A stretch of DNA of 25,305 nt from Anaerolineae bacterium (GTDB lineage Bacteria; Chloroflexota; Anaerolineae; 4572-78; NAK82). The DNA is taken from the NCBI GenBank assembly GCA_034412795.1, contig DAOUMD010000141.1, forward strand, positions 1 to 25,305, written 5' to 3'. Position numbers and translations under genes: made by a program. Shown here one piece after another: positions 12,832-24,570 of this stretch; the stretch's first letter is position 1; every line of letters begins with the position of its first letter. The notes under the pieces are model-generated. The model did not search any database. It was not told the DNA's origin and was given only the letters and a program-made list of their open reading frames with translations.

Positions 12832-12895
12832 GCCGGGGCGTCGTTGCCTGGCCCGCAGGCCAAGACCGGCAATGATGCCCCGGCTTTTTGTTTTT
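12832..12895 (+). terminator. Intrinsic terminator of the E1-E2 operon: stem GCCGGGG...CCCCGGC followed by TTTTTGTTTTTG.
   Basis: Stem arms 12832-12838 / 12877-12883 with a T-run at 12884-12895. Two short hairpins precede it (12714-12730 and 12773-12791). Confidence 0.55.
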
Positions 12896-12987
12896 GCTCG
12901 CTTGCGTCCCGCCCCACCCACCCCGCCCCGTCATCATCTCAAAAGCCCCCAGCTTCCCCCCCGCCAACCCGCGTCGAGAACGTTCCC

Positions 12988-13036
12988 CAATCTACCAGCA
13001 TACCAATCTACCAACCCACCAACCCCAAATCTACCA
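12988..13036 (+). promoter_or_regulatory. Three direct repeats of (C)AATCTACCA in a C-rich tract immediately upstream of the SPFH-gene promoter. Candidate activator-binding array.
   Basis: Copies at 12988-12998, 13003-13013 and 13026-13036, read directly. Confidence 0.35.
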
Positions 13037-13046
13037 AAAACCGACT

Positions 13047-13178
13047 TGATTTTTGTCGTAAAACATGGTATCATAGACATAATCATTTGTCATAACAGCA
13101 CAACCTGTTGTGTGCTGGTTAACAAGCGGACATGGTGCGAACTCCTCTCACTCCTCGACGCACCCTTTTTTGGTCATA
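13047..13178 (+). promoter_or_regulatory. Promoter (TTGATT 13047-52, N16, TGgTATCAT 13066-74) plus a 110-nt leader. The leader holds a hairpin at 13097-13116 and a terminator-like stem GGTGCG...CGCACC followed by CTTTTTT (13134-13171).
   Basis: Hexamers and stems read directly. RBS GGGAGGTGG before ATG 13193. Confidence 0.4.
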
Positions 13179-13192
13179 CGGGAGGTGGATGG

Positions 13193-14950
13193 ATGACGGC
13201 CAATACCGTAACCGCTGAGCAGTCTTCTGCATCAAGGGGATTGGGCACTCTCGGGACAGCCTTATTCTTTCTCTTAGTTCTGGTAGGTGTCTTTTTCTTC
13301 TATAGCCACTTCTTCGATTCGGGATATTTCGGAGACGATCTCTGGTGGCACCTGGGCACGATATGGTTATTGGTTGGGGTGGGGATATATGTCCTGTTTT
13401 TGCTGAATCCCGCCAAGCGAAGGTTCTGGTTGTTTGTCTACCTTATCTTCGTGCTTACTATCGCCTTCGGTGCTTTTTTCCAAAGCCAAATCACTGGCGG
13501 AACAGGGGTCACTCGCCTCATCCAGAATAGCCCTCTGCTCACCTCCTTATTCGGGGGATACTTCAAAAGCGTGATCTGGTCACTGGTATTTGGCCTATTG
13601 ATCGCGCTCTCTTTGGTTATTGTGCCCCTGCTCATCATTGCCTTCGCCGCCTCCGAATACGTGCTGGCCCTGCACGAAATCGACGGTGTTCGCCGTCGGG
13701 ACGCCGTGAGTTACGTGATTGCGTTGATACTGGGCATCAACCAGCCCTTCATCGTGGTCGAAGACGGCCAGGCGCTGGTTACCAAGGAGGCTGGCAAGAT
13801 CAACGTCATTGGTGGGCCAGGCAAGTTGATCATCAAGCAGGGCAACGTAGTTGTGTTGGAACGCGGCGGCAAGATCACGCGCGTGCTAAACGCCGGCGTC
13901 CACAAGCTTAAACCGCTGGAGAAGATACGCAATGTCTTCAACTTGGGCCGCCAATCCAACTCCGATGAGATAGAGCACGTTCTGACCAAGGATCGCATAC
14001 CGCTAAAGATCAAGTTGGGTATCGGCGTCCAGATTGAGCCGGCCTCCGAGGCCGACAAACGCCCCGAAAGCCGCATCTCGCCCGATGGGGAAGCGCTGAC
14101 CCCAAGACTGGACGACGGTATGTACGCAGTATACGAGGGCACCATTCGTAAGGCGGCTCAGATGTCCCAGGCTACCTCTTTTGCCAAACGTGAATTCAAG
14201 AAGTGTGACGAAGAGCAGGTATGTCAGGACGTGCAAGAGACCACCTGGAAAAAAGTCGCCGGCGGACTGCCTGAAGGTGATTTGCGCGACCATATTATGA
14301 GCCATCGATTTGACGAGTTATTTGAACTGGTTGACAGCGCACCCGGGGAAAAACCTGAGATTCGGGTCGACAAGCGCAAAATTTATGAGATTGAGCAAGC
14401 CATCCTTGAAAAAATCAAGCCCGGCAAACTAAAGGGACTGGGGGTGCTGGTGCACGGTGTGGATATTGGGAAGATCGAGTTTCCAGAAGAAGCGAAAGAC
14501 CTGTTGTTAAATCGCTGGGGAGCTCCGTGGCAACAGCAAATACAACTTATAGAGGCTAAGGCAAAAGCGAAGGGTGAGTTGCAAGCCAAATTACTGGCCG
14601 CTCAAGGCGACCTGGAGGCAACACGGATGGAAGCACAGGGTGAACGGGAAATCGCGGATCTGAAAGCTCAAGCTATTGTAATCAGTGCCCGCGCCAAAGC
14701 CCAGAAACGGGTTATGGAAGGGCGTAGTCAAGCAGAGGCGCGGGCAGCCTTCTTCCAGTTTATAGTGGAAGCACTTCAAGTGGATGGGCGCCCAATAGAT
14801 CCCCAACTAATGGGAGCCATACTGAAGGAATTAGCTTGCTCCTTTGCCTCAGTTAATGATCTTGAGACTTTCATGAGGGTGCATGGCAGATTGAATCGGC
14901 AAGCAGATTTCTCATTGGGTCAGGACAATGGGACAGTAGCAAGTGATTGA
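13193..14950 (+). CDS. SPFH/band-7 (stomatin/HflK/flotillin-like) membrane protein with a polytopic N-terminal domain (about 5 TM), a large insert in the SPFH core and a coiled-coil tail.
   Basis: VVLERGGKITRVLNAGVHKLKPLEKIRNV...HVLTKDRIPLKIKLGIGVQIEP aligns to the SPFH core (VVLRFGK..L.PGLHF.IPF...V....VLTKDG..V.VD.VVQYRI). C-terminal GVLVHGVDIGKIEFPEEA matches the end of the SPFH domain. Ala/Gln/Lys-rich coiled coil. Paralog of 22984-24570. The ORF-track start at 12872 is an upstream low-complexity extension. Confidence 0.75.
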   Translation: MTANTVTAEQSSASRGLGTLGTALFFLLVLVGVFFFYSHFFDSGYFGDDLWWHLGTIWLLVGVGIYVLFLLNPAKRRFWLFVYLIFVLTIAFGAFFQSQITGGTGVTRLIQNSPLLTSLFGGYFKSVIWSLVFGLLIALSLVIVPLLIIAFAASEYVLALHEIDGVRRRDAVSYVIALILGINQPFIVVEDGQALVTKEAGKINVIGGPGKLIIKQGNVVVLERGGKITRVLNAGVHKLKPLEKIRNVFNLGRQSNSDEIEHVLTKDRIPLKIKLGIGVQIEPASEADKRPESRISPDGEALTPRLDDGMYAVYEGTIRKAAQMSQATSFAKREFKKCDEEQVCQDVQETTWKKVAGGLPEGDLRDHIMSHRFDELFELVDSAPGEKPEIRVDKRKIYEIEQAILEKIKPGKLKGLGVLVHGVDIGKIEFPEEAKDLLLNRWGAPWQQQIQLIEAKAKAKGELQAKLLAAQGDLEATRMEAQGEREIADLKAQAIVISARAKAQKRVMEGRSQAEARAAFFQFIVEALQVDGRPIDPQLMGAILKELACSFASVNDLETFMRVHGRLNRQADFSLGQDNGTVASD

Positions 14951-14985
14951 TCCGCTCGCGCAGCCTCTGTTGAGACAAGGGATTC

Positions 14986-15105
14986 TAAGAACCTGTTTGA
15001 AAATTATTAACCCGTTGTCCCCCTACATATTGGGGGACACTGACCGATACGCCCACATGTAGGTTCAAACCGTTCCAAAACGTGCTAAGAGCCTGTTTGA
15101 AAATT
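14986..15105 (+). promoter_or_regulatory. Two 20-bp direct repeats TAAGARCCTGTTTGAAAATT exactly 100 bp apart, flanking a 7-bp-stem palindrome (GTCCCCC tacatatt GGGGGAC, 15017-15038). This is the upstream region of the S24 gene.
   Basis: Read directly: 14986-15005 and 15086-15105. Confidence 0.35.
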
Positions 15106-15129
15106 GGCTCTAAGTTAGGAGTGGCAATT

Positions 15130-17346
15130 ATGGCATCCCATAGACAAGCCAGTGATGAGATTATTCAGTTTCTGGAGGATTTTCAAGGTACATCACCAGA
15201 TTTGCCTATTTCAGTGGTCGGTCATTGGCAGGAGGCGATGGCAATATGCAAGAAAACAAAGCCGAATTGGAGCAAAGCTGCAGATTTTTGCAATTGCATT
15301 GCAACGGTTTTGAATGGATTGCGTGGCAGTGGAGGGGATTTGGGGCAACTTGAAAAATCTCAGGGACAGATTTCGATTCTTTTGGGTGCCATAAGTCTGG
15401 GCCAGAAAGACTGGTCTGCGGCAAGTTACTATTTTGAACAAGGAGCCAGACGGCTGAGGCAATGGGGGCACACGTCTCTCGAAAGTCTCGCCTATTTTGG
15501 CCGGGCTTTGACTCATAAGCAGGAAGAAAACTGGCCTGGGGCCTTGGAAGCGGCGCAAAAAGCATTGGATGCAATCCACGGCCTTCCTGTTCCTGATAAG
15601 TCGATGCATACTAAGCATTTGCAAAAGCGGATTGAGGAAGGGATCAGATCCATCGGGGAGGTCTCCGCGAGAGTTATTGCGAAACAACCACCAAGTCGGA
15701 GGCCAACGCCTTCTAGGTCTATGTCTAGCCCTCCCCTTCCAATACCGATAGTAAGCAATATTGCAGCTGGCCTCGGCGTCATTGTCGAAGAAAACATCGA
15801 GAATTATCTCCTCTTAGACGACGATCGCCGTAACGACGTCGACTTTGGGGTAAGAGTGGTTGGGGAAAGTATGAAAGGTGACGGCATCCTGCCGGGGGAC
15901 ATCGCCCTTATCCGCCAACAGCCAATAGTTGAAATGGGAGAGATCGCTGCTGTCGTTGTTACGACGCCTACAGGTTCCGAGGGTGTGCTTAAGCGATACC
16001 ACCTTGCATACGAAGAACGGCCGAGTATGTTTCACTGGTTCCTCAAGTCCAGCAATCCGGCCAGTGAGCACCTAGTTGTCATACCCAGTGGCGCAGATAT
16101 TATTGCAATCAAAGCTATATACGAGAATGCAATTCGATCTGGCCGAATACGCAATCCGATTGAGTATTACGAGGACGCTGAACTAATCATTGCCGGAAAA
16201 TATGTCGGATCAGTAAAGAGTATACCGATATCCAGTGACATCAGTGCCTTTACCGCCGGGCCAGGGCGGATTGGAGATGAAAACACTGAGGGGTTCATAT
16301 CTCTAGATGTGAGTTATCGCACTATGGTTGACTTTGGGGTAAGGGTGATAGGAGACAGTATGAAAGGTGATGGTATCCTGCCTGGGAATATTGCACTTAT
16401 CCGTCAGCAGCCAGTTGTTGGGGAAGGAGAGATTGCCGCCCTTGTGATTACAACATCGACTGGCAGGGAAGGGGTACTTAAAAGGTACTACCCCGAAGAA
16501 AGTGAGGGTTTGCAGCACTGGCTTCTTAAGTCTAGTAACCCCGTGGCCAAGGATTTAGTTGTTATACCGCCTCATACAGATGTAGATCAGATTCGGAATC
16601 TATATGCCAGGGAAATCCAGAGTGACAGGGTCGAGTTTTATGAAGATGCTGAACTAGAAGTCGTTGGCAAATATGTTGAGTGTTTCGAGGAGGAATCTTT
16701 TTCAGTTCCAGTTATCTCCACCATAGATAGGGTAAAGCAACCATCAGTGAAGACGGCTGTTGAGAGTTTAGGCGGTTACGCTGAAGTAGAGATTCTTGCA
16801 GGCAGGATTGCGGAAACTGTTAGTGAGCGTCTAACCGGGGCTACACATCAACTAGCCGAGGCTAATTACAGATATTATGACGAACTCAAAGGTATGATTC
16901 GGAAACTTCCGTTTGCTGGTATTGAAGTGCTCGATAACTTCGAAGGATTTGTAATTGCAGAAATTCCTGATGCTAGAAAGGAAACTGGCCAAGCCCCAAA
17001 CAAGGATCGCTATATTTTGCATGGGGCACAGAAAAAGCACGAGATACATATCTCCATCCAATCGGTTGAGCCTTTGGGAGCTACTGACAGCGTTGTTGAG
17101 ATTATTCGAATAATTGATGGTGAGGACGTGGAATATGTCAACTTTGTAGCCAGGTTGGACTGTAATACACTCGATTTTGAACAAGCTGAGTTTACAATTT
17201 CTGTTCCATCCAGATATGCAAAGCCGTCTATTCCGAAAAAAGTCGTTTCCATTACAGGCGAACGAGGGATACATAATCTATTCATTCATATCTCTCAGAA
17301 GAATACACTTGTCCAAGTCCTCTTCATAGAATTGGAGATTCGCTAG
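15130..17346 (+). CDS. Multidomain protein with a TPR-like helical N-domain, a Pro/Ser linker, two tandem LexA-like S24 peptidase domains and a C-terminal domain of about 230 aa that I cannot assign.
   Basis: Both repeats carry the Ser-Lys dyad context (RVVGESMKGDGILPGD...GVLKRY and RVIGDSMKGDGILPGN...GVLKRYY), closely matching LexA (RVSGMSMKDIGIMDGD...VTVKRL). Each is preceded by a LexA-like cleavage region (NIAA-GLGV and FTA-GPGR) about 33 residues before the Ser. RBS AGGAGTGG before ATG 15130. Confidence 0.8.
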   Translation: MASHRQASDEIIQFLEDFQGTSPDLPISVVGHWQEAMAICKKTKPNWSKAADFCNCIATVLNGLRGSGGDLGQLEKSQGQISILLGAISLGQKDWSAASYYFEQGARRLRQWGHTSLESLAYFGRALTHKQEENWPGALEAAQKALDAIHGLPVPDKSMHTKHLQKRIEEGIRSIGEVSARVIAKQPPSRRPTPSRSMSSPPLPIPIVSNIAAGLGVIVEENIENYLLLDDDRRNDVDFGVRVVGESMKGDGILPGDIALIRQQPIVEMGEIAAVVVTTPTGSEGVLKRYHLAYEERPSMFHWFLKSSNPASEHLVVIPSGADIIAIKAIYENAIRSGRIRNPIEYYEDAELIIAGKYVGSVKSIPISSDISAFTAGPGRIGDENTEGFISLDVSYRTMVDFGVRVIGDSMKGDGILPGNIALIRQQPVVGEGEIAALVITTSTGREGVLKRYYPEESEGLQHWLLKSSNPVAKDLVVIPPHTDVDQIRNLYAREIQSDRVEFYEDAELEVVGKYVECFEEESFSVPVISTIDRVKQPSVKTAVESLGGYAEVEILAGRIAETVSERLTGATHQLAEANYRYYDELKGMIRKLPFAGIEVLDNFEGFVIAEIPDARKETGQAPNKDRYILHGAQKKHEIHISIQSVEPLGATDSVVEIIRIIDGEDVEYVNFVARLDCNTLDFEQAEFTISVPSRYAKPSIPKKVVSITGERGIHNLFIHISQKNTLVQVLFIELEIR

Positions 17347-17349
17347 CCA

Positions 17350-18627
17350 ATGGGACGATCAGGGAAACGTAAGCAGCCCATTCTTACAATTGAAGTGTTT
17401 AGTATGAGTGACCAATCTACCGAAATAGGCTTCAGTGGTTCAGGTGATTTTCAAAGTAGAACATTTCGCATAGAGGATTTTGGTTATAGAAGCCTACCCG
17501 AGCATTTTGAACGTTATAGTTCAGCCTTGGAAAATCTCAAAAGAAAATTCGGCAAAGGTGACAAGCAGGAGCAGCCCAGTGAACTGAAAGAGGCAATCAA
17601 AGAACTCTCCAATGGCACAAGTTACTTATATAATTACTTATTTCGAAGACGTAATGATGTCTATGTGGACATCGTAAATCATCTAAGAAATCATATACCT
17701 ACGTCTGATCCAAGACGGGGCGAGGACGTGAACGTGATTGAGGTAAGGGCAAGTAGTATTAAGCATATTATTCCCATCGAATGTCTAGTGATGCCGGATC
17801 ACTCTTTGGGACTAGAGATCAAGGAGAAAAAAGATGTAGTCAGAGCCACATTAAACGTTCTAGGATTCTCGTTTATTATTAATCGAGTGGTTACACATAT
17901 GGAAAGAGTGAGCCAAAAACGAGAGCTTTGTAACGTTCCGGCGTTACCGCTGAAGCAGTTTTACGACGGGTCTCTCGAAGGGGCAGGATATGAGTGTGAT
18001 TTTTTTAAAGGCAAGAGGTTTGGAAGATATTTTCGCTTGGATGGTCCTTGGCCAGAGAGAGGCTCCGATTTTGAAGCGGAAGATGTGGTTCGATACTTCT
18101 ATAGACCCGATCTTGGGTTTGGTCAGGTTATTCAAGCAGAAGCAATAGGACGTCAATCTGACGAAATCCATCATCTATCTTGCCATTGCTATACGGATGA
18201 AAATGCCTCCTGGAGAAGTTTTTTACGTTTCACAGACAGACTCAAAGTAAGTTTAGAGGAAATGCAAAGTCATTTGCCGCATCTCAAATTCAGGGAATAT
18301 TCAGATAAGGAAATGCCTTTAATATTTCTAAATGCTTGCGGTGGCTCGAAGATATCCCCTGAAGGAATGACCTCTTTCCCCGACTATTTTCTAAACGACA
18401 ACCAAAACTGTGGATTTATTGGTAGTGAGACCAATATTCCGGATCCTTTTGCCGCCGAATTCTCTCAAGAGTTTTATTTAAACTTAATACGAGGATTCAC
18501 AATTGGCGAGGCTTTGTTCTGGGCACGTCATACAATGTTGAATAGGTACAACAACCCTCTAGGAATTCTCTACACGTTTTATGGAGATCCATATCTGAGA
18601 GTCACGAAGAAGGCAGATGACCTCTGA
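17350..18627 (+). CDS. CHAT-domain (caspase-like, clan CD) protease.
   Basis: His region EIHHLSCHCYTD and Cys region PLIFLNACGGSK, followed by a CHAT-like tail ending GDPYLRV. AT-rich codon usage like the upstream gene. Start 17350 versus 17404 is uncertain. Confidence 0.75.
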   Translation: MGRSGKRKQPILTIEVFSMSDQSTEIGFSGSGDFQSRTFRIEDFGYRSLPEHFERYSSALENLKRKFGKGDKQEQPSELKEAIKELSNGTSYLYNYLFRRRNDVYVDIVNHLRNHIPTSDPRRGEDVNVIEVRASSIKHIIPIECLVMPDHSLGLEIKEKKDVVRATLNVLGFSFIINRVVTHMERVSQKRELCNVPALPLKQFYDGSLEGAGYECDFFKGKRFGRYFRLDGPWPERGSDFEAEDVVRYFYRPDLGFGQVIQAEAIGRQSDEIHHLSCHCYTDENASWRSFLRFTDRLKVSLEEMQSHLPHLKFREYSDKEMPLIFLNACGGSKISPEGMTSFPDYFLNDNQNCGFIGSETNIPDPFAAEFSQEFYLNLIRGFTIGEALFWARHTMLNRYNNPLGILYTFYGDPYLRVTKKADDL

Positions 18628-18825
18628 AATCAGTTCATACAATTGAACGCCGAACGAAAAAATTAGAAAGCACATTAGACCAAATGATTAACAATATGGC
18701 CCCTTCACAATTGACAGTAGCGCCAACTAGGCAAGAAAGTCGGAGCACCACTCTCAGATTCGTTGACGTGTAAAGTTGGTAAGAAGACGCCAGCATTAAT
18801 TCAATTGCATAATTGAGGAGGAAGT

Positions 18826-19149
18826 ATGAGCGAGCGTACAATCGTAATAATCGGTCGGGAAGACACAGAGGATCGAGGTATCTTGGGCAATGCGAGTCAA
18901 TGGGTTTTTGAACGAGAGGAAGTCTCGGTAGATCACATAAAATCCCAACTCATTGATTTCCTTTCTAGCATGCAGGAAATCTTGGATGGTCTTCCAGACA
19001 AAATGGCTCGGTATGAACTTGAGTCGATGGATGTAAGCGTAGAGATCAGCACGAAAGGAAACGTAAGCCTTGTGGCGGTTGGTGGGGAGTTAGGCGGTAC
19101 GGGTGGCTTGACATTGCATCTAAAAAAGAAGTCACCAGGCCAGCAATAG
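18826..19149 (+). CDS. Small (107 aa) protein, function not assignable. Likely accessory component or substrate of the protease pair.
   Basis: Strong RBS GAGGAGG 5 nt before ATG. Gly-rich C-terminus (AVGGELGGTGGLTLHLKKK). Same AT-rich block and strand as the protease genes. Confidence 0.55.
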   Translation: MSERTIVIIGREDTEDRGILGNASQWVFEREEVSVDHIKSQLIDFLSSMQEILDGLPDKMARYELESMDVSVEISTKGNVSLVAVGGELGGTGGLTLHLKKKSPGQQ

Positions 19150-19775
19150 AGCATCCTAATCAAGAAACTGATTGATATATTGTTATTATGGCAAGCTGAT
19201 AGATCACAATCACGGAATTACTAAGAGTGGTGATTTGAGCGACAGGGGTATCCTGCAATGGTCCTCCATCACTTCATTTCATACCATACCACTTCGACCA
19301 AATTTCCTAGCGTAGGCAGCGTCCATAGCGCAAACTACCATAGGGCATGTTGTCATCTCGAAGGATCATCCTATGATCAACTAAGACTGCTTACCCTATG
19401 TCTAAGGACATTGGTCACAAGTTAAGCAGATTGGAAATTTGTCAAATTCATGCCCTACACAATAACACAGGCCATCAAGGCTGAGATTTCGCAAAGTTCT
19501 AATCAAGCCAGTTTGTTTCACCTAAGTGTTCGTTGGTACATCTGGCTGTGACCATAGCCAAATTGACCAAGAGCTTGTTGAAAAATCGGCTGGAAATCTA
19601 TAAGTTTCTACCTTGACAAATCGCGAAAACGCTTAACTTGTAGGTTGTGGTCTAAGACAGTAGCTCCTTAGTATCTGTAAAGAAATAACTTGTGAGTTTT
19701 GGTCCTACATAACGCGCAAAGAATCACAACTTATTTTTTTACAAGTACTTAGTTAAGATCGTGCTGAGGTGACCT

Positions 19776-20858
19776 ATGCCAGTCTGTGTATCGTGTCGCG
19801 GAGAATACTGGGCTCCAACCGGAAGTGGGCAGAACACTAGTGAGCAACCACGGGATGCACCTACACCATCCGCATTCGATCAAATTGCGCGGTCTGAAGA
19901 AAGCCAAGCACCCGAGGCACCCGCATCGACACATGCGTCACTCTCCCCATCATCAGGCCTGGCGGAGGCATACGACCTGCGTGACCTGCCGCCCTTCGTT
20001 TGCGCCCGCTGCCGTCAGAGCAACCGGCGCTGGCACGAGTGGGCTACCGCCCGCTTTGGCGCCCATTTTATACGTTTCTTCTTTCAAAGCATTCCCTGGG
20101 GTTTGCTGGCATTAATCTCCTTCTTGTTGCCTCTGGTAGCCATCGCTGCCGCCGACACGATCACGCCTGTCGCCTCGGTGCGCATCGGGATTCCCCTGGC
20201 CCTCTTGCTGATCTTTGTCAACGTCGCGTTGCTGTACGCCATCAAAAACTCATTGTGGCGCTACGATGTCTTGAGCCGGGTCGGGCGTGGCTTCAGGCCG
20301 TCGCTGGTCACGCTGGGCGTCACCTTTTTTATCCTGGCGCTGATCTTCGGCCTGGCTCTGGTCTTCATGATGGAAGCCCGCGCCGACGACCCGGAGGCGG
20401 GGCCGACCCAGGGGCTGCTGCGTGTGCTGACCACCATTATGCTGGCGCTGACCTTCGTCAACGTGACAATCTCCGCTATGTTCTTATCCGCCCACGATTA
20501 CGCCAAATGGCTCGACCGTGAGATGCCGCAACCCATCTACGCCCAAGAAAAACGCTTGTTGAGGCTAATTGAGGACGGCGTGTTAGCAAGCATCAAGCGG
20601 GCGACAGGCAAAGAGGATGAGGGAGTGGCAACCACTATCGTGGATATGGAGCGTTGCAAGGATGGCGGCGCTGACCTGGTGATCGGCGCCGAGGTCGCAT
20701 CGAACGGAGACGGGTCGCTGATGAAGTTGCAGAACTGGCAGGTTAAAGCTGATCGCTGGGGCCGAATAAGGAAGATGAGCCGGGAAGGTCCCCCTCAGTA
20801 CGTGGAGTTGCCCGTTGCCGAAAGCTCTGAAGATGATGAAGGTCAAGGGAATGGATGA
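19776..20858 (+). CDS. Zinc-ribbon (CxxC...CxxC) multi-TM membrane protein with a cytoplasmic C-terminal domain that I cannot assign. Paralog of the next gene.
   Basis: N-terminal CVSCRG...CARCRQ, then 3-4 hydrophobic helices. C-terminal motif WQVKADRWGRIRK shared with the next gene (WRVVSDKWGRVTQ). RBS GAGGTGA. Confidence 0.65.
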   Translation: MPVCVSCRGEYWAPTGSGQNTSEQPRDAPTPSAFDQIARSEESQAPEAPASTHASLSPSSGLAEAYDLRDLPPFVCARCRQSNRRWHEWATARFGAHFIRFFFQSIPWGLLALISFLLPLVAIAAADTITPVASVRIGIPLALLLIFVNVALLYAIKNSLWRYDVLSRVGRGFRPSLVTLGVTFFILALIFGLALVFMMEARADDPEAGPTQGLLRVLTTIMLALTFVNVTISAMFLSAHDYAKWLDREMPQPIYAQEKRLLRLIEDGVLASIKRATGKEDEGVATTIVDMERCKDGGADLVIGAEVASNGDGSLMKLQNWQVKADRWGRIRKMSREGPPQYVELPVAESSEDDEGQGNG

Positions 20859-20920: not shown

Positions 20921-21928
20921 TTGTTTAATGAACGTCCCACACCTTTGCCCTGTATAGCCTGCCACACATCCCTGTCTCCTGCCTCCCTCGACTGCTGCCC
21001 CCGCTGTGGCGCGGATAATCGCGCCTGGTTTACCTGGCTGTCTGCCGATCAAAGGGACCACCTCAAGCGATTTTTCCTGCGTAGCCCCTGGGGCCGGCTG
21101 GCGCTGGTCTCGCTGCTCTTGCCCCTTATTTGGGGTGCTCTTAGTGGGCTGCCGGCCTTTGAGACGGTGGTTCTATTTCTGGCGTTCCTGCTGAGCCTGA
21201 CCGGTCTCGTTTTTCTCTTCGCCAGGCGAGATGTCCTGTCCATCCACGACATGGCGCGCCGCGTTTCCCCCGGTCTTCATCCGGAGTTGCTGTCCCTGGG
21301 TGGTACAGGCTTCCTGGTATTCATTGGGGTCGCCGCGATCCTGGTGATCGCTTGGGGATCCGAAGTGTTGGGGGGTGGGCCATCAGCCTTCAACACGTTA
21401 GGAGGTGGGGCTATCGTCTTAGTCGGGCTGGCTTTCACCACCCAGACGTTGGGAGCCGGTCTATATGCCGTGTGTGCCTATGGTCATTGGCTATGCCGCG
21501 CTTTCCCCAGGCCCGTCTTCCTGGACCAGGCGCGGCTTCTGCAATTGGTCCTGCGCGCGGTGGTGCCCCGCATCCAGGTCAAAACGGGCGACACCTATGA
21601 GGCGGTGGCGGCCCAGGTCGTGGCCCTGTCACGCACTAACCGGGCGGGTCTGGATGTGTTGATTCGGGCCGAGGCCGGGACGGACGAGGGTTGGGAGGGA
21701 CACTACCTCAAGGCGGTTCAGCATTGGCGCGTCGTCTCCGACAAGTGGGGGCGTGTGACACAACTGAAACCCCAGGGGCCCCTGGAGTACCTCCCCGATC
21801 TGGACCGCGTGGCCACACCCTTCGCCCCTGGGGATAATGGGGAGAAGGTCTTGGATGGCAAGATTATACCCCCGGAGAAGGAGATATTCCATTATAGGGA
21901 GGTCAGGGATTATCACTTCCGCAAGTGA
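20921..21928 (+). CDS. Second zinc-ribbon multi-TM membrane protein (tandem paralog).
   Basis: CIACH...CCPRCG zinc ribbon, TM helices, and a C-terminal domain homologous to the previous gene. Probable TTG start preceded by GGATGGAG. Confidence 0.6.
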   Translation: MFNERPTPLPCIACHTSLSPASLDCCPRCGADNRAWFTWLSADQRDHLKRFFLRSPWGRLALVSLLLPLIWGALSGLPAFETVVLFLAFLLSLTGLVFLFARRDVLSIHDMARRVSPGLHPELLSLGGTGFLVFIGVAAILVIAWGSEVLGGGPSAFNTLGGGAIVLVGLAFTTQTLGAGLYAVCAYGHWLCRAFPRPVFLDQARLLQLVLRAVVPRIQVKTGDTYEAVAAQVVALSRTNRAGLDVLIRAEAGTDEGWEGHYLKAVQHWRVVSDKWGRVTQLKPQGPLEYLPDLDRVATPFAPGDNGEKVLDGKIIPPEKEIFHYREVRDYHFRK

Positions 21929-22012: not shown

Positions 22013-22040
22013 TTGACAGAGCTGCACAATGTGGTATAAT
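22013..22040 (+). promoter_or_regulatory. Near-consensus sigma70 promoter: TTGACA (22013-18), N16, TGgTATAAT (22032-40).
   Basis: Hexamers read directly, in an AT-rich intergenic region. Confidence 0.5.
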
Positions 22041-22320: not shown

Positions 22321-22349
22321 TTGACAAATGTTATGGCGTATGTTAGAAT
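22321..22349 (+). promoter_or_regulatory. Second strong promoter: TTGACA (22321-26), N17, TAGAAT (22344-49).
   Basis: Read directly. Lies about 160 nt upstream of ATG 22510. Confidence 0.45.
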
Positions 22350-22509: not shown

Positions 22510-22764
22510 ATGCCAGACAGTAGAAGAGGTTCCAATTCGCGGCTAGAAATCTGGTTCAAGGATGAAATTGAGAACACACTAAGTGCAATAGACTTGGCAA
22601 ATGAGGAGTTGTTCGAGATTGTCTGTGTTCCTGAGATGCAGCTCTACCGCCAAGGTTACCAAGCTGCGCTGCGAGCTGTTGCGGAGGCATTTGGAATTCG
22701 GCGTGAGCTGACAGCAAACGGCACTGGACGATCACCGAATATCATAGACGCCAACCCTCGCTGA
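22510..22764 (+). CDS. Hypothetical 85-aa protein in an AT-rich mini-module.
   Basis: GGAGG 4 nt before ATG 22510 (MPDSRRGSNSRLEIWFKDEIEN...). Followed by a strong terminator. No family recognised. Confidence 0.45.
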   Translation: MPDSRRGSNSRLEIWFKDEIENTLSAIDLANEELFEIVCVPEMQLYRQGYQAALRAVAEAFGIRRELTANGTGRSPNIIDANPR

Positions 22765-22983: not shown

Positions 22984-24570
22984 TCAATCAATTGACCATT
23001 TGGACGTATCCGCAGATTGTGCCATGTCACCAGGCAGTAGCGGTCCTTGGATCTGAGTTCCTTGCAGCGTGGCAATAAGAAGCCGCCTGTCCTCAGCTTT
23101 GTTCAGGCACTCGTACAGCGTCTTTATTGTTTCCTTCATCGCATCTTGGTCAAGGAAATGGCGCAGCAGCCTAAGCATTTGCTCGAATTGCTTCGCTCGG
23201 ACCTCAGCTTCTGCCTCGCCACGAGTAACAAGAGCCCCCTTCTCGGCTTCGGCCACGATCTCCTTCACCCTGGCATCCGCATGGGCCTCTAACAGCCTGA
23301 GTGCCCGCTCTTGTACTTGATCCGGTAACTTCACACCCTGGATGTCAACGGCGCGAATTCTTATGCCAAAGTTCTTAGCAGCAGCTTGGGCCCACCGGTC
23401 CAGAATGTATTGTTCTATCTCTTGGATGGTTCGCTGGTCTTCTTTAAACTTTTTCGGTAAGCTACTGTTCTCGTCGAAACCGACCGGGCGTAAAATCTGA
23501 TCAAGGCGATAGGTCGCGATCGTGTCCCGCAGTTGTGACTCCGCCCCGGCCACACTGAGGATCTCCCAGCCGGCGGGTGTCACATTCAGGCCTGCCTTGC
23601 GGACGTTCTCCACCCAGACCGGGTAGTCGCCGCCAATCATAACCTCTTCCTTACCGGCCTTCAAATCATTGATGAGCCGGGTCAGCTTATCCCGTTCTTC
23701 GCCCTCATTCTTGGCTAACTCTTCCTCCAAACGCTTGATAGTATCAGGCAAAGGCTCAATTTGATAGCCCACGCCCACTTTTAAGGTCAACCGCACCCCA
23801 TCGCTGGTCAGGACATCCTCTATTTCTTCGGTTTTCCACAGCGGGTTGAGACGCACAATCTTGTAGACGTACTCGTATAACCTGGTTTTGAACACGCCTG
23901 GGCCCCTAATCTGTGTGATCTTGCCGCCTTTCTCGAGTACCACGGCGTTGCCAGGCCGGACGATCACCCGGCCTGGTCCACCGATCGCGGTTAAGACTCC
24001 CCGTGATCGAGCCCGTGTTTCCCGCCCGTCTTCTATGATCACCCATGGATAGTAAGTTCTGAAGATCAATGAAAATAGCCAGCGCACGGCGTCACGCTGG
24101 GTGATACCTTTGTAATCATGTAGGGCGAGCAGAGGCACTGTAGCTAGCCACATCAGGAAAGCCAGTGGCAAGAGCAAGACAATGACAACCACAACCCCGG
24201 CGAGAAAGCCCAACGCCGCTTGTAAGGCAAGCGCGTTGCGGGTGGTGGCTGCCAACCTGGATTCTCGAGCTGCGGCCGCGATGGCGGGACTGGTAGCGAT
24301 GAAGGTCTGCACCAATGTCGCTACTAACAAGATGACGAAGAGGAGAATCCAGACGAAGGCCAGAAATCGAAAAAGTGGCTTCACAAAGAGTCGGAAAAAT
24401 AGGAGTCCACCCAGGAAGCCCACGGCATAACTCAGCCTCCAGTCGATTTGATATGTGGCGATGGTGAGAAAGATCAATCCAAGCGCAACTAGCGCCATCT
24501 GTACCCCTCCCCCACTTAGCTCGGTCGCTTTCTTGGGTACTTCGCTGGAGATGTCCGTCGTACTGGTCAT
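22984..24570 (-). CDS. SPFH/band-7 membrane protein paralog (polytopic N-domain plus SPFH core with insert plus coiled coil).
   Basis: RGVLTAIGGPGRVIVRPGNAVVLEKGGKITQIRGPGVFKTRLYEYVYKI...DVLTSDGVRLTLKVGVGYQIEP aligns position by position with the 13193-14950 protein. RBS GGAGGAA before ATG. Confidence 0.75.
   Translation of the reverse strand: MTSTTDISSEVPKKATELSGGGVQMALVALGLIFLTIATYQIDWRLSYAVGFLGGLLFFRLFVKPLFRFLAFVWILLFVILLVATLVQTFIATSPAIAAAARESRLAATTRNALALQAALGFLAGVVVVIVLLLPLAFLMWLATVPLLALHDYKGITQRDAVRWLFSLIFRTYYPWVIIEDGRETRARSRGVLTAIGGPGRVIVRPGNAVVLEKGGKITQIRGPGVFKTRLYEYVYKIVRLNPLWKTEEIEDVLTSDGVRLTLKVGVGYQIEPLPDTIKRLEEELAKNEGEERDKLTRLINDLKAGKEEVMIGGDYPVWVENVRKAGLNVTPAGWEILSVAGAESQLRDTIATYRLDQILRPVGFDENSSLPKKFKEDQRTIQEIEQYILDRWAQAAAKNFGIRIRAVDIQGVKLPDQVQERALRLLEAHADARVKEIVAEAEKGALVTRGEAEAEVRAKQFEQMLRLLRHFLDQDAMKETIKTLYECLNKAEDRRLLIATLQGTQIQGPLLPGDMAQSADTSKWSID

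Follow-up and report, generated by a model that had tools for sequence, protein, structure and literature searches.

In the SOS response and in prophage induction, self-cleavage of the LexA type serves as the textbook switch and, to our knowledge, it has always been described as acting on transcription or translesion synthesis. Here we analyse a stretch of 25,305 nucleotides from an Anaerolineae bacterium (contig DAOUMD010000141.1 of assembly GCA_034412795.1; hereafter the window), in which a gene at positions 15130 to 17346, referred to as the target, encodes a protein with a TPR-like domain and two LexA-type peptidase domains (MEROPS family S24) in one chain. The gene is preceded by one for an SPFH/Band-7 membrane protein and followed by genes for a caspase-like CHAT protease and a Pepco protein. 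The target may be the autoproteolytic sensor or switch of a rare SPFH-associated conflict system that controls killing by CHAT and Pepco, an overall model to which we would give about an even chance; the conflict system would probably be of the anti-phage or abortive-infection type.

The comparison with LexA, lambda cI and UmuD is the most direct one. In both S24 copies of the target the predicted catalytic fold, the Ser-Lys dyad and the Ala-Gly loop are equivalent to those of these proteins, and the predicted cut would, as in LexA, detach a functional N-terminal domain from the S24 part that follows. The target differs from them in that its N-terminal domain is TPR-like and not a helix-turn-helix (HTH), in that a single chain carries two S24 domains, each with an inserted helix before the last strands, and in the presence of an extra C-terminal domain (CTD). 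Moreover, it sits in an SPFH-CHAT-Pepco operon rather than in an evident role in the regulation of transcription, and its match to the UmuD family (NF007621, 26.7 bits) stays below the NCBIfam cut-off of 110 bits.

Pepco has been shown in experiments to be a beta-barrel pore toxin that becomes active once a neighbouring protease removes its C-terminal tail (SsPepco/SsAvs4; 10.1101/2025.11.14.688446). As in the protease-Pepco modules described so far (PMC7159879; 10.1101/2025.11.14.688446), the Pepco gene of the window adjoins that of a caspase-like protease, and by analogy the same logic would be expected, in which the protease trims the Pepco tail and the pore opens. In the described modules, protease and sensor (STAND/Avs, FGE or peptidoglycan-binding) are parts of one protein, whereas the CHAT protein of the window, with its 425 amino acids, stands by itself, and what precedes it is a LexA-type S24 protein that is joined to the module through an uncatalogued CTD. 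A similar arrangement is found in loci in which an nSTAND2-CTD protein is followed by CHAT and Pepco (L009-L012, L031-L033; L and P numbers denote loci and proteins): these have the same CTD, the same tight spacing of CTD and CHAT and, where the contig continues, Pepco after CHAT. However, their sensor is a P-loop STAND NTPase, whereas the window has the TPR-S24-S24 protein with its SPFH partner and no NTPase.

Gene pairs of an SPFH protein and a protease (HflK/C with FtsH; stomatin with STOPP/NfeD) resemble the locus in that the SPFH gene adjoins the protease gene and the products are presumed partners. STOPP also uses a Ser-Lys dyad. The protease of the window has the S24 fold, in contrast to the AAA+ metalloprotease or ClpP-like fold of the proteases in those pairs, and the TPR-S24 system differs from them further in that it carries swappable toxin domains and is hypervariable. 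The likeness to the FIIND/ZU5 domains of NLRP1 and CARD8 and to TRADD-N proteins (PMC8195603) is one of concept, namely that autoproteolysis within an immune sensor licenses the release of an effector; fold and chemistry of the FIIND/ZU5 autoprotease are unrelated to those of the target and there is no homology. TRADD-N or EAD7 adaptors do occur on some relatives of the target, as in the predicted bacterial TRADD-N proteins (PMC8195603). The components of the system belong to known kinds.

The target gene has the following layout, based on Pfam, AlphaFold2 (AF2), Foldseek and a profile alignment:

15130 to 17346, forward strand: target gene, an open reading frame (ORF) with an ATG start, encoding a TPR-S24-S24 protein of 738 amino acids.
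15130 to 15738, forward strand: TPR-like helical N-domain, residues 1-203 (helices in residues 3-185), based on AF2, Foldseek and TPR_2/TPR_12 matches.
15739 to 16218, forward strand: S24 #1, residues 204-363, with predicted scissile bond A213-G214 (15766-15771), Ser247 (15868-15870) and Lys288 (15991-15993).
16219 to 16692, forward strand: S24 #2, residues 364-521, with predicted scissile bond A376-G377 (16255-16260), Ser410 (16357-16359) and Lys451 (16480-16482).
16693 to 17346, forward strand: predicted helical linker (about residues 522-576) and beta-rich CTD (about residues 577-738, nucleotides 16858-17343), conserved in relatives.

An alternative GTG start upstream, at 15082, would yield a protein of 754 amino acids. 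Peptidase_S24 (PF00717) was matched in two stretches of the protein, with 78.1 bits against a Pfam cut-off of 23.3. In the profile alignment, A213, G214, S247 and K288 of the first copy and A376, G377, S410 and K451 of the second share their columns with A84, G85, S119 and K156 of E. coli LexA, the sequence of which agrees over residues 74-147 with a HMMER alignment to a solved LexA chain. HMMER alignments to LexA chains of the PDB likewise put AAG (212-214) and FTAG (374-377) onto V82-A83-A84-G85 of LexA, and GESM of S24 #1 and GDSM of S24 #2 onto LexA GMSMK. The Ala and the Ser are 34 residues apart in both copies, versus 35 in LexA. The Ser nucleophile, the Lys general base and the Ala-Gly site by which S24 peptidases are recognized are all placed as in LexA, in both copies.

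An earlier note on this DNA, made from the sequence by itself, had proposed the fusion of two S24 domains, a Ser (GESM/GDSM) and Lys dyad in each, and a cleavage-like Ala-Gly motif at a LexA-like distance of about 33 residues. These proposals are borne out by the Pfam matches and alignments given above; the possibility that the residues lie elsewhere in the fold was checked by alignment, and Ser, Lys and Ala-Gly do occupy the catalytic and cleavage columns of LexA. Across the family, 124 of the 128 S24 domains with an intact Ser have an Ala/Cys-Gly site, while among nine domains that lost the Ser and have an aligned site column the Ala/Cys-Gly was kept in one and the Lys had changed to Arg in six, counts that are not corrected for phylogeny. 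The joint loss argues that the Ala-Gly site works as a single unit with the Ser and the Lys, as self-cleavage predicts. The combined sequence evidence supports the view that both are genuine LexA-type S24 domains, for which self-cleavage is predicted.

The structural models are in line with this assignment. The S24 part of the AF2 model has the predicted fold of the LexA C-terminal domain, as it matched LexA C-terminal domain chains in Foldseek with E ~1e-6 and a target-normalised TM-score of 0.76-0.82, and also lambda cI and UmuD'. The second S24 domain was modelled with confidence (predicted local distance difference test, pLDDT, ~90) and the first moderately well. Residues 1-185 were predicted to be entirely helical (pLDDT ~85-95), and the fold matches of this N-domain in the PDB are the TPR domains of sNASP, BtubC/KLC, Sec72 and LGN; the TPR_2 and TPR_12 matches of Pfam in this part are sub-threshold. 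The N-domain is kept in P0019-P0025 and in other relatives. No HTH was found in the target with Pfam, nor was an NTPase domain. The suggestion of the earlier note that the N-terminal ~200 residues are helical and TPR-like and do not bind DNA thus finds support in the AF2 model, the Foldseek matches and the lack of a Pfam HTH.

The two S24 copies share 58% of their amino acids over 158 residues (E 3e-57, well beyond chance), or 59.5% over 153 profile-aligned columns, close to the ~60% that had been estimated before. The accompanying estimate of ~75% nucleotide identity was too high: the 153 aligned codons are 61.2% identical, and the best block, of 251 nucleotides, reaches 69%. S24 #1 is nearest to the terminal S24 domains of P0004 (71%) and P0005 (68%), and the nearest domain to S24 #2 in all data is S24 #1 (59.5%), followed by a next best of 55.8%. 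The proportion of synonymous differences between the copies (pS) is 0.82, i.e. saturated, the identity at third codon positions is 40% and the non-synonymous divergence (dN) 0.32, with all eight key residues retained. With synonymous sites saturated and dN at 0.32, the split is old and both copies have been maintained by purifying selection. A recent tandem duplication was rejected on the basis of this saturation. The sequences are compatible with either of two origins of the tandem, an old duplication within the gene or a fusion of two neighbouring S24 paralogues.

The tandem itself, which had been taken as singular to this protein, is a trait of the family. A profile scan of 148 proteins yielded 15 with two or more S24-like domains, 14 of which have a degenerate S24 domain followed by a live one. 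What does set the target apart among the 148 is that Ala-Gly, Ser and Lys are intact in both copies. In the family alignment, S24 #1 of the target aligns position for position with the degenerate S24-like domain of many relatives, in which the x-Gly loop, the Lys (LKTF) and the DHYFL motif are kept and Asp, Asn, Val or Ile replaces the Ser. Other loci have the second S24 module as a separate gene: a live S24 domain with a transmembrane (TM) anchor in L006 (205 amino acids), a dead one in L003 (TSG/EDGM/LRRY, 313 amino acids) and a TPR-S24 protein in L030 (355 amino acids). Two S24 modules per system appear to be the rule, and this pattern is consistent with a predicted hetero- or pseudo-dimer.

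The relatives were collected by a word-indexed search, which returned 17, and by phmmer run exhaustively against 1.84 billion representatives, with 119 matches at E <1e-10. The basic unit of the family is a protein of ~350-375 amino acids with a helical N-domain and a single S24 domain. P0019 is 51% identical to the target across residues 2-363, and P0020, P0021 and P0023 are similar. Nearly every family protein has at least one fully intact S24 domain. Various domains have been added at the N-terminus of this TPR-S24 chassis, namely TIR (P0012), HNH with TRADD-N (P0008), trypsin (P0009, P0010) and EAD7 (P0005, P0014, P0016). An exchange of toxin and adaptor domains while the chassis stays constant is a signature of bacterial conflict systems (PMC7159879, PMC8195603). 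The named host organisms belong to Chloroflexota/Anaerolineae, apart from one locus in a deltaproteobacterial metagenome-assembled genome (MAG). The family is rare: a scan of 185,579 species genomes with the S24-module alignment gave 5 loci, and the matches of a metagenome scan are mostly on contigs of 1-2 kb with little context. JGI annotations label relatives as 'SOS-response transcriptional repressor LexA'. In the literature searched, the coverage of which is incomplete, we found no prior description of an S24 or LexA-like protein with SPFH, CHAT, Pepco or conflict systems, and neither S24 nor LexA is mentioned in PMC7159879, PMC8195603 and 10.1101/2025.11.14.688446. The target, with its two live S24 domains and its CTD, is best explained as a TPR-S24 protein that gained a second intact S24 domain and the CTD in the window locus.

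The CTD links the target to the two genes that follow it:

17350 to 18627, forward strand: CHAT (caspase-like) cysteine protease of 425 amino acids (PF12770, 35.5 bits against a Pfam cut-off of 24).
18826 to 19149, forward strand: Pepco protein of 107 amino acids (PF24393, 65.9 bits against a Pfam cut-off of 27).

The CHAT gene starts 3 nucleotides past the stop codon of the target, and the Pepco gene 199 nucleotides past the stop of CHAT. The CHAT motifs HLSCH (residue 275) and LNAC (residue 327) are conserved in four homologues; from what is known of the caspase/CHAT family we take them to be the catalytic His-Cys dyad. The window has both parts of a protease-Pepco module, i.e. a small Pepco-family protein beside a protease with His and Cys motifs.

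Relatives of the CTD were found by exhaustive phmmer and profile searches as stand-alone proteins (P0064, P0066-68, P0156-158), at the C-termini of the nSTAND2 NTPases P0070 and P0078, with which the target shares only this domain, and at the C-terminus of P0022, a TPR-S24 protein with a single S24 domain. In each of the eight contexts recovered, the CTD is succeeded by a CHAT homologue, with a distance of -4 to +3 nucleotides between the CTD stop and the CHAT start in seven of them, and Pepco follows CHAT in 6/6 contexts where the contig continues. The linkage is the same for a free CTD as for one fused to nSTAND2 or to TPR-S24. Because CHAT always follows it, and Pepco wherever the contig continues, the CTD is best read as a predicted link that couples a sensor encoded upstream to the output pair of CHAT and Pepco. 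In place of a STAND NTPase, the window has a TPR-S24 protein at the sensor position, and so, independently, does L030. The earlier note had left the C-terminal ~230 residues unassigned; it is true that the CTD has no Pfam family (two weak LtfC-like beta-sandwich matches were all that lenient scans of the complete set of CTD members yielded), but the domain is conserved, has relatives and connects the target to the CHAT-Pepco cassette. An AF2 model of the CTD from eight sequences is unreliable (pLDDT 41). The possibility that the CTD equals the CATASP small protein of 10.1101/2025.11.14.688446 was considered; in view of the lack of a Pfam match to the CTD the two were not equated. A word-indexed search with the C-terminal 217 amino acids returned no match and missed even the parent protein, whereas more than 10 relatives came out of the exhaustive one; word-indexed negatives are untrustworthy for such short, divergent domains.

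The other neighbours of the target form what seems to be the constant part of the system:

13193 to 14950, forward strand: SPFH/Band-7 membrane protein of 585 amino acids (Band_7, 35.4 bits against a Pfam cut-off of 23.6).
19776 to 20858, forward strand: g360, a protein with a CxxC...CxxC zinc-ribbon, ~4 TM helices and a cytoplasmic C-domain, by sequence features.
20921 to 21928, forward strand: g335, a paralogue of g360 with the same architecture (phmmer E 8e-42 against g360; sequence features).

The SPFH protein is built from an N-terminus with multiple TM segments (hydrophobic segments in residues 13-190), the SPFH domain and a coiled-coil tail, and has weak HflC matches in NCBIfam. In each of the 13 loci that could be evaluated by local phmmer (the window, L003-5, L006, L007/8, L013, L014, L015 with two pairs, L016, L017, L021, P0019 contigs and L034), the S24-family gene has an SPFH homologue as its immediate upstream neighbour. 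The gene order of the window is SPFH, target, CHAT, Pepco, g360 and g335, and no terminator-like site was found on the forward strand between SPFH and Pepco. Homologues of g360 occur downstream of the S24 gene in L003-5, L006, L013 and L014, the last of which has g335 as well; the g360 copy of L006 is 87.5% identical in amino acids and 89% in nucleotides. No family was found for g360 and g335 by PADLOC, NCBIfam, Pfam or a PDB sequence search. The minimal loci L013 and L014 consist of SPFH, a TPR-S24 protein of ~345 amino acids, g360 and g335. SPFH, TPR-S24 and one or two zinc-ribbon/4-TM proteins as the constant core of the system is the best explanation of these loci.

With respect to the SPFH gene, the mechanical ORF runs 107 codons upstream of the called start at 13193 (12872-13192); this extension is Pro-rich and of low complexity and, judged from its composition, probably untranslated. 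The SPFH homologue of L034 aligns from residue 1 of the 585-residue version. In L015 (6412-14931), two consecutive pairs of SPFH and S24-family genes in one Anaerolineales MAG indicate that the two-gene unit was duplicated. A second, divergent SPFH/Band-7 paralogue (E 8e-44 against the first) lies on the reverse strand of the window, at 22984-24570. Just beyond the window, after this second SPFH gene (L001 19553-21915), follow a gene of 93 amino acids and one for a Response_reg/TCAD9/APH-kinase protein; the region looks like a defence island because TCAD9 is another marker of conflict systems.

A comparison with the close relative L006 revealed how variable the remainder of the locus is. The DeoR-E1-E2 flank is 93% identical in nucleotides and E1 97.7% in amino acids, but the SPFH proteins share only 65% of their amino acids. 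The S24 region of L006 encodes a trypsin-TPR-dead S24-S24 protein, a TM protein of 133 amino acids and the TM-anchored S24 protein, unlike that of the window. The variable block spans ~14588-19765 in the window and 7383-11466 in L006, between flanks that are 89-93% identical in nucleotides, and the two sequences become homologous again precisely where g360 starts (19765). Between Pepco and g360, a stretch of 626 nucleotides (19150-19775, GC 0.41) without a convincing ORF may be a recombination junction or the scar of an inserted cassette. The GC content at third codon positions (GC3) is 0.46-0.49 in the N-domain and S24 #1, 0.44 in S24 #2 and 0.38 in the CTD, compared to 0.385 in CHAT, 0.68-0.71 in g360/g335 and ~0.8 in housekeeping genes, a pattern that fits a modular acquisition of the CTD-CHAT(-Pepco) block.

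Some further features were noted in the window and in related loci. A perfect sigma-70 consensus (12/12; TTGACA, a spacer of 16 nucleotides, TATAAT and an extended TG) is found at 22013-22040 and a site with 11/12 positions at 22321-22349, both on the forward strand, in intergenic DNA of low GC that precedes an ORF of 84 amino acids (22510-22764). An ORF of 103 amino acids at 6578-6889 matches only the last 68 positions (222-289 of 289) of Amidohydro_2 and is likely a truncated gene remnant. A gene of 207 amino acids with the metallo-beta-lactamase (MBL) fold lies a few genes upstream of SPFH-S24 in the unrelated loci L003 (4961-5946) and L007 (2840-3463), where HisKA and HTH_3/DUF7662 genes are found near the MBL genes, and a gene of 116 amino acids comes after the one of L003. 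MBL-fold hydrolases are one class of protease-activated effectors (10.1101/2025.11.14.688446).

Building on the domains, residues, architecture, linkage and cassette diversification observed here, we infer the following course of events. At rest, the target would be intact, possibly held at the SPFH assembly via its TPR domain, and CHAT would be silent. A signal would then bring the Ala-Gly loops into the active sites with their Ser-Lys dyads, in the way that RecA* acts on LexA. Candidate triggers are a RecA*-like co-protease or filament, a phage protein or ligand bound by the TPR domain, and a membrane perturbation sensed by SPFH. Cuts at A213-G214 and/or A376-G377 would produce fragments of ~213, 163 and 362 residues, the last of which, S24 #2 with the CTD, would be freed from the TPR domain and possibly from S24 #1. 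Presumed binding of this CTD-bearing fragment would license CHAT, and CHAT would trim the C-terminal tail of Pepco, so that membrane pores would form and the cell would be killed or arrested. The earlier note had likewise proposed a proteolytic switch rather than a repressor. The second half of that proposal has gained ground: a non-transcriptional role is strongly favoured because of the SPFH partner, the swappable effector domains, the adjacent CHAT-Pepco pair and the absence of phage genes nearby. The cleavage on which the first half depends is a prediction.

Several observations weigh against this model. That cleavage activates rather than inactivates is a guess, and the CTD would remain joined to S24 #2 after a cut at either site. 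The loop of the first cleavage site (residues 186-229) was modelled with pLDDT <50, and the full-length AF2 model has a predicted TM-score (pTM) of 0.37, is poor over the C-terminal 215 residues and gives no usable geometry between the domains. The ~20 loci are phylogenetically narrow, and the linkage counts are not independent of each other. SPFH-protease pairs also serve in housekeeping membrane quality control. Finally, SPFH, the tandem S24 protein and CHAT had no match to a defence model of PADLOC-DB v2 at E values up to 0.1.

The strictly conserved pairing of SPFH and protease genes would also suit a processing peptidase that acts in trans on a partner, be it SPFH, the zinc-ribbon/TM proteins, CHAT or Pepco. 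STOPP (PH1510), a Ser-Lys protease, cuts the stomatin of its own operon, and UmuD cleaves across its dimer. The usual presence of two S24 modules per locus, often one dead and one live, could then reflect one module that presents its site to the other, and the dead domains do retain an x-Gly loop. However, in both live domains an Ala-Gly loop is found at the LexA position and across the family this loop was lost along with the Ser, as expected of a self-substrate, and we consider a peptidase in trans unlikely. Alternatively, the S24 domains could be mainly structural, as a scaffold of dimers or pseudo-dimers or as a site at which a RecA-like filament docks; cleavage would then be slight or absent, and signals would pass via ligand binding by the TPR domain and oligomerisation, as in STAND sensors. 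The C-terminal domains of LexA dimerise, dead S24 domains are tolerated in many family members, and it is the position of a STAND NTPase, upstream of CTD-CHAT-Pepco, that the TPR-S24 chassis takes. Nevertheless, purifying selection has kept Ser, Lys and Ala-Gly in both copies despite saturated synonymous divergence, and hardly any family protein lacks a fully intact S24 domain, which makes a mainly structural role improbable.

About equally improbable in our view is that SPFH, TPR-S24 and the zinc-ribbon/TM proteins constitute a housekeeping module for membrane quality control or stress, comparable to HflK/C-FtsH, into which an unrelated CHAT-Pepco pair was inserted. The weak HflC-like matches of the SPFH protein, the two minimal loci without a recognisable effector (L013, L014) and the distinct GC3 of CHAT, Pepco and the CTD would agree with such a module. 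In contrast, the CTD is translated within the S24 protein and specifically tied to CHAT-Pepco, relatives have TIR, HNH, trypsin, EAD7 and TRADD-N fused to the same chassis, and the system is very rare and patchy (the 5 loci mentioned above) and hypervariable between close relatives, unlike housekeeping genes. A transcriptional repressor of the LexA, cI or prophage type with a divergent DNA-binding domain is by far the least probable of these alternatives. The JGI names of relatives point that way, as do matches in PHROGs to a phage repressor and to a UmuD-like family, although these cover the S24 domain only. However, the N-domain has no Pfam HTH and is predicted to fold as a TPR, the match to the lexA model TIGR00498 (72.1 bits against a cut-off of 110.95) is confined to the S24 part, phage genes are absent nearby and, in place of a DNA-binding domain, relatives have enzymatic effectors. 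None of the neighbouring genes had a PHROG match, on which basis a prophage setting was rejected as well.

With the autoproteolytic switch as the favoured reading, a wider proposal may be formulated, which we put forward tentatively and with more doubt than the model itself. TPR-S24 and SPFH could represent an undescribed class of immune sensors, in which LexA-type autoproteolysis, and not NTP-driven oligomerisation, licenses diverse death effectors (TIR, HNH, trypsin, those recruited by EAD or TRADD-N, and CHAT-Pepco), and the live S24 pair of the target could be an intramolecular pseudo-dimer and a gate with two cuts that releases S24-CTD to switch on CHAT. If true, the chemistry of LexA would have been reused as the trigger of an immune module that kills the cell, at the place where STAND/NLR-like ATPases normally sit, and the protease-effector logic of bacterial immunity would gain a new class of sensors. 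It would also link an SPFH membrane scaffold to defence and provide a compact, genetically encoded proteolytic switch with two sites. For three uncatalogued families, i.e. the CTD, the zinc-ribbon membrane proteins g360/g335 and the TPR-S24 chassis, the locus offers a first functional context.

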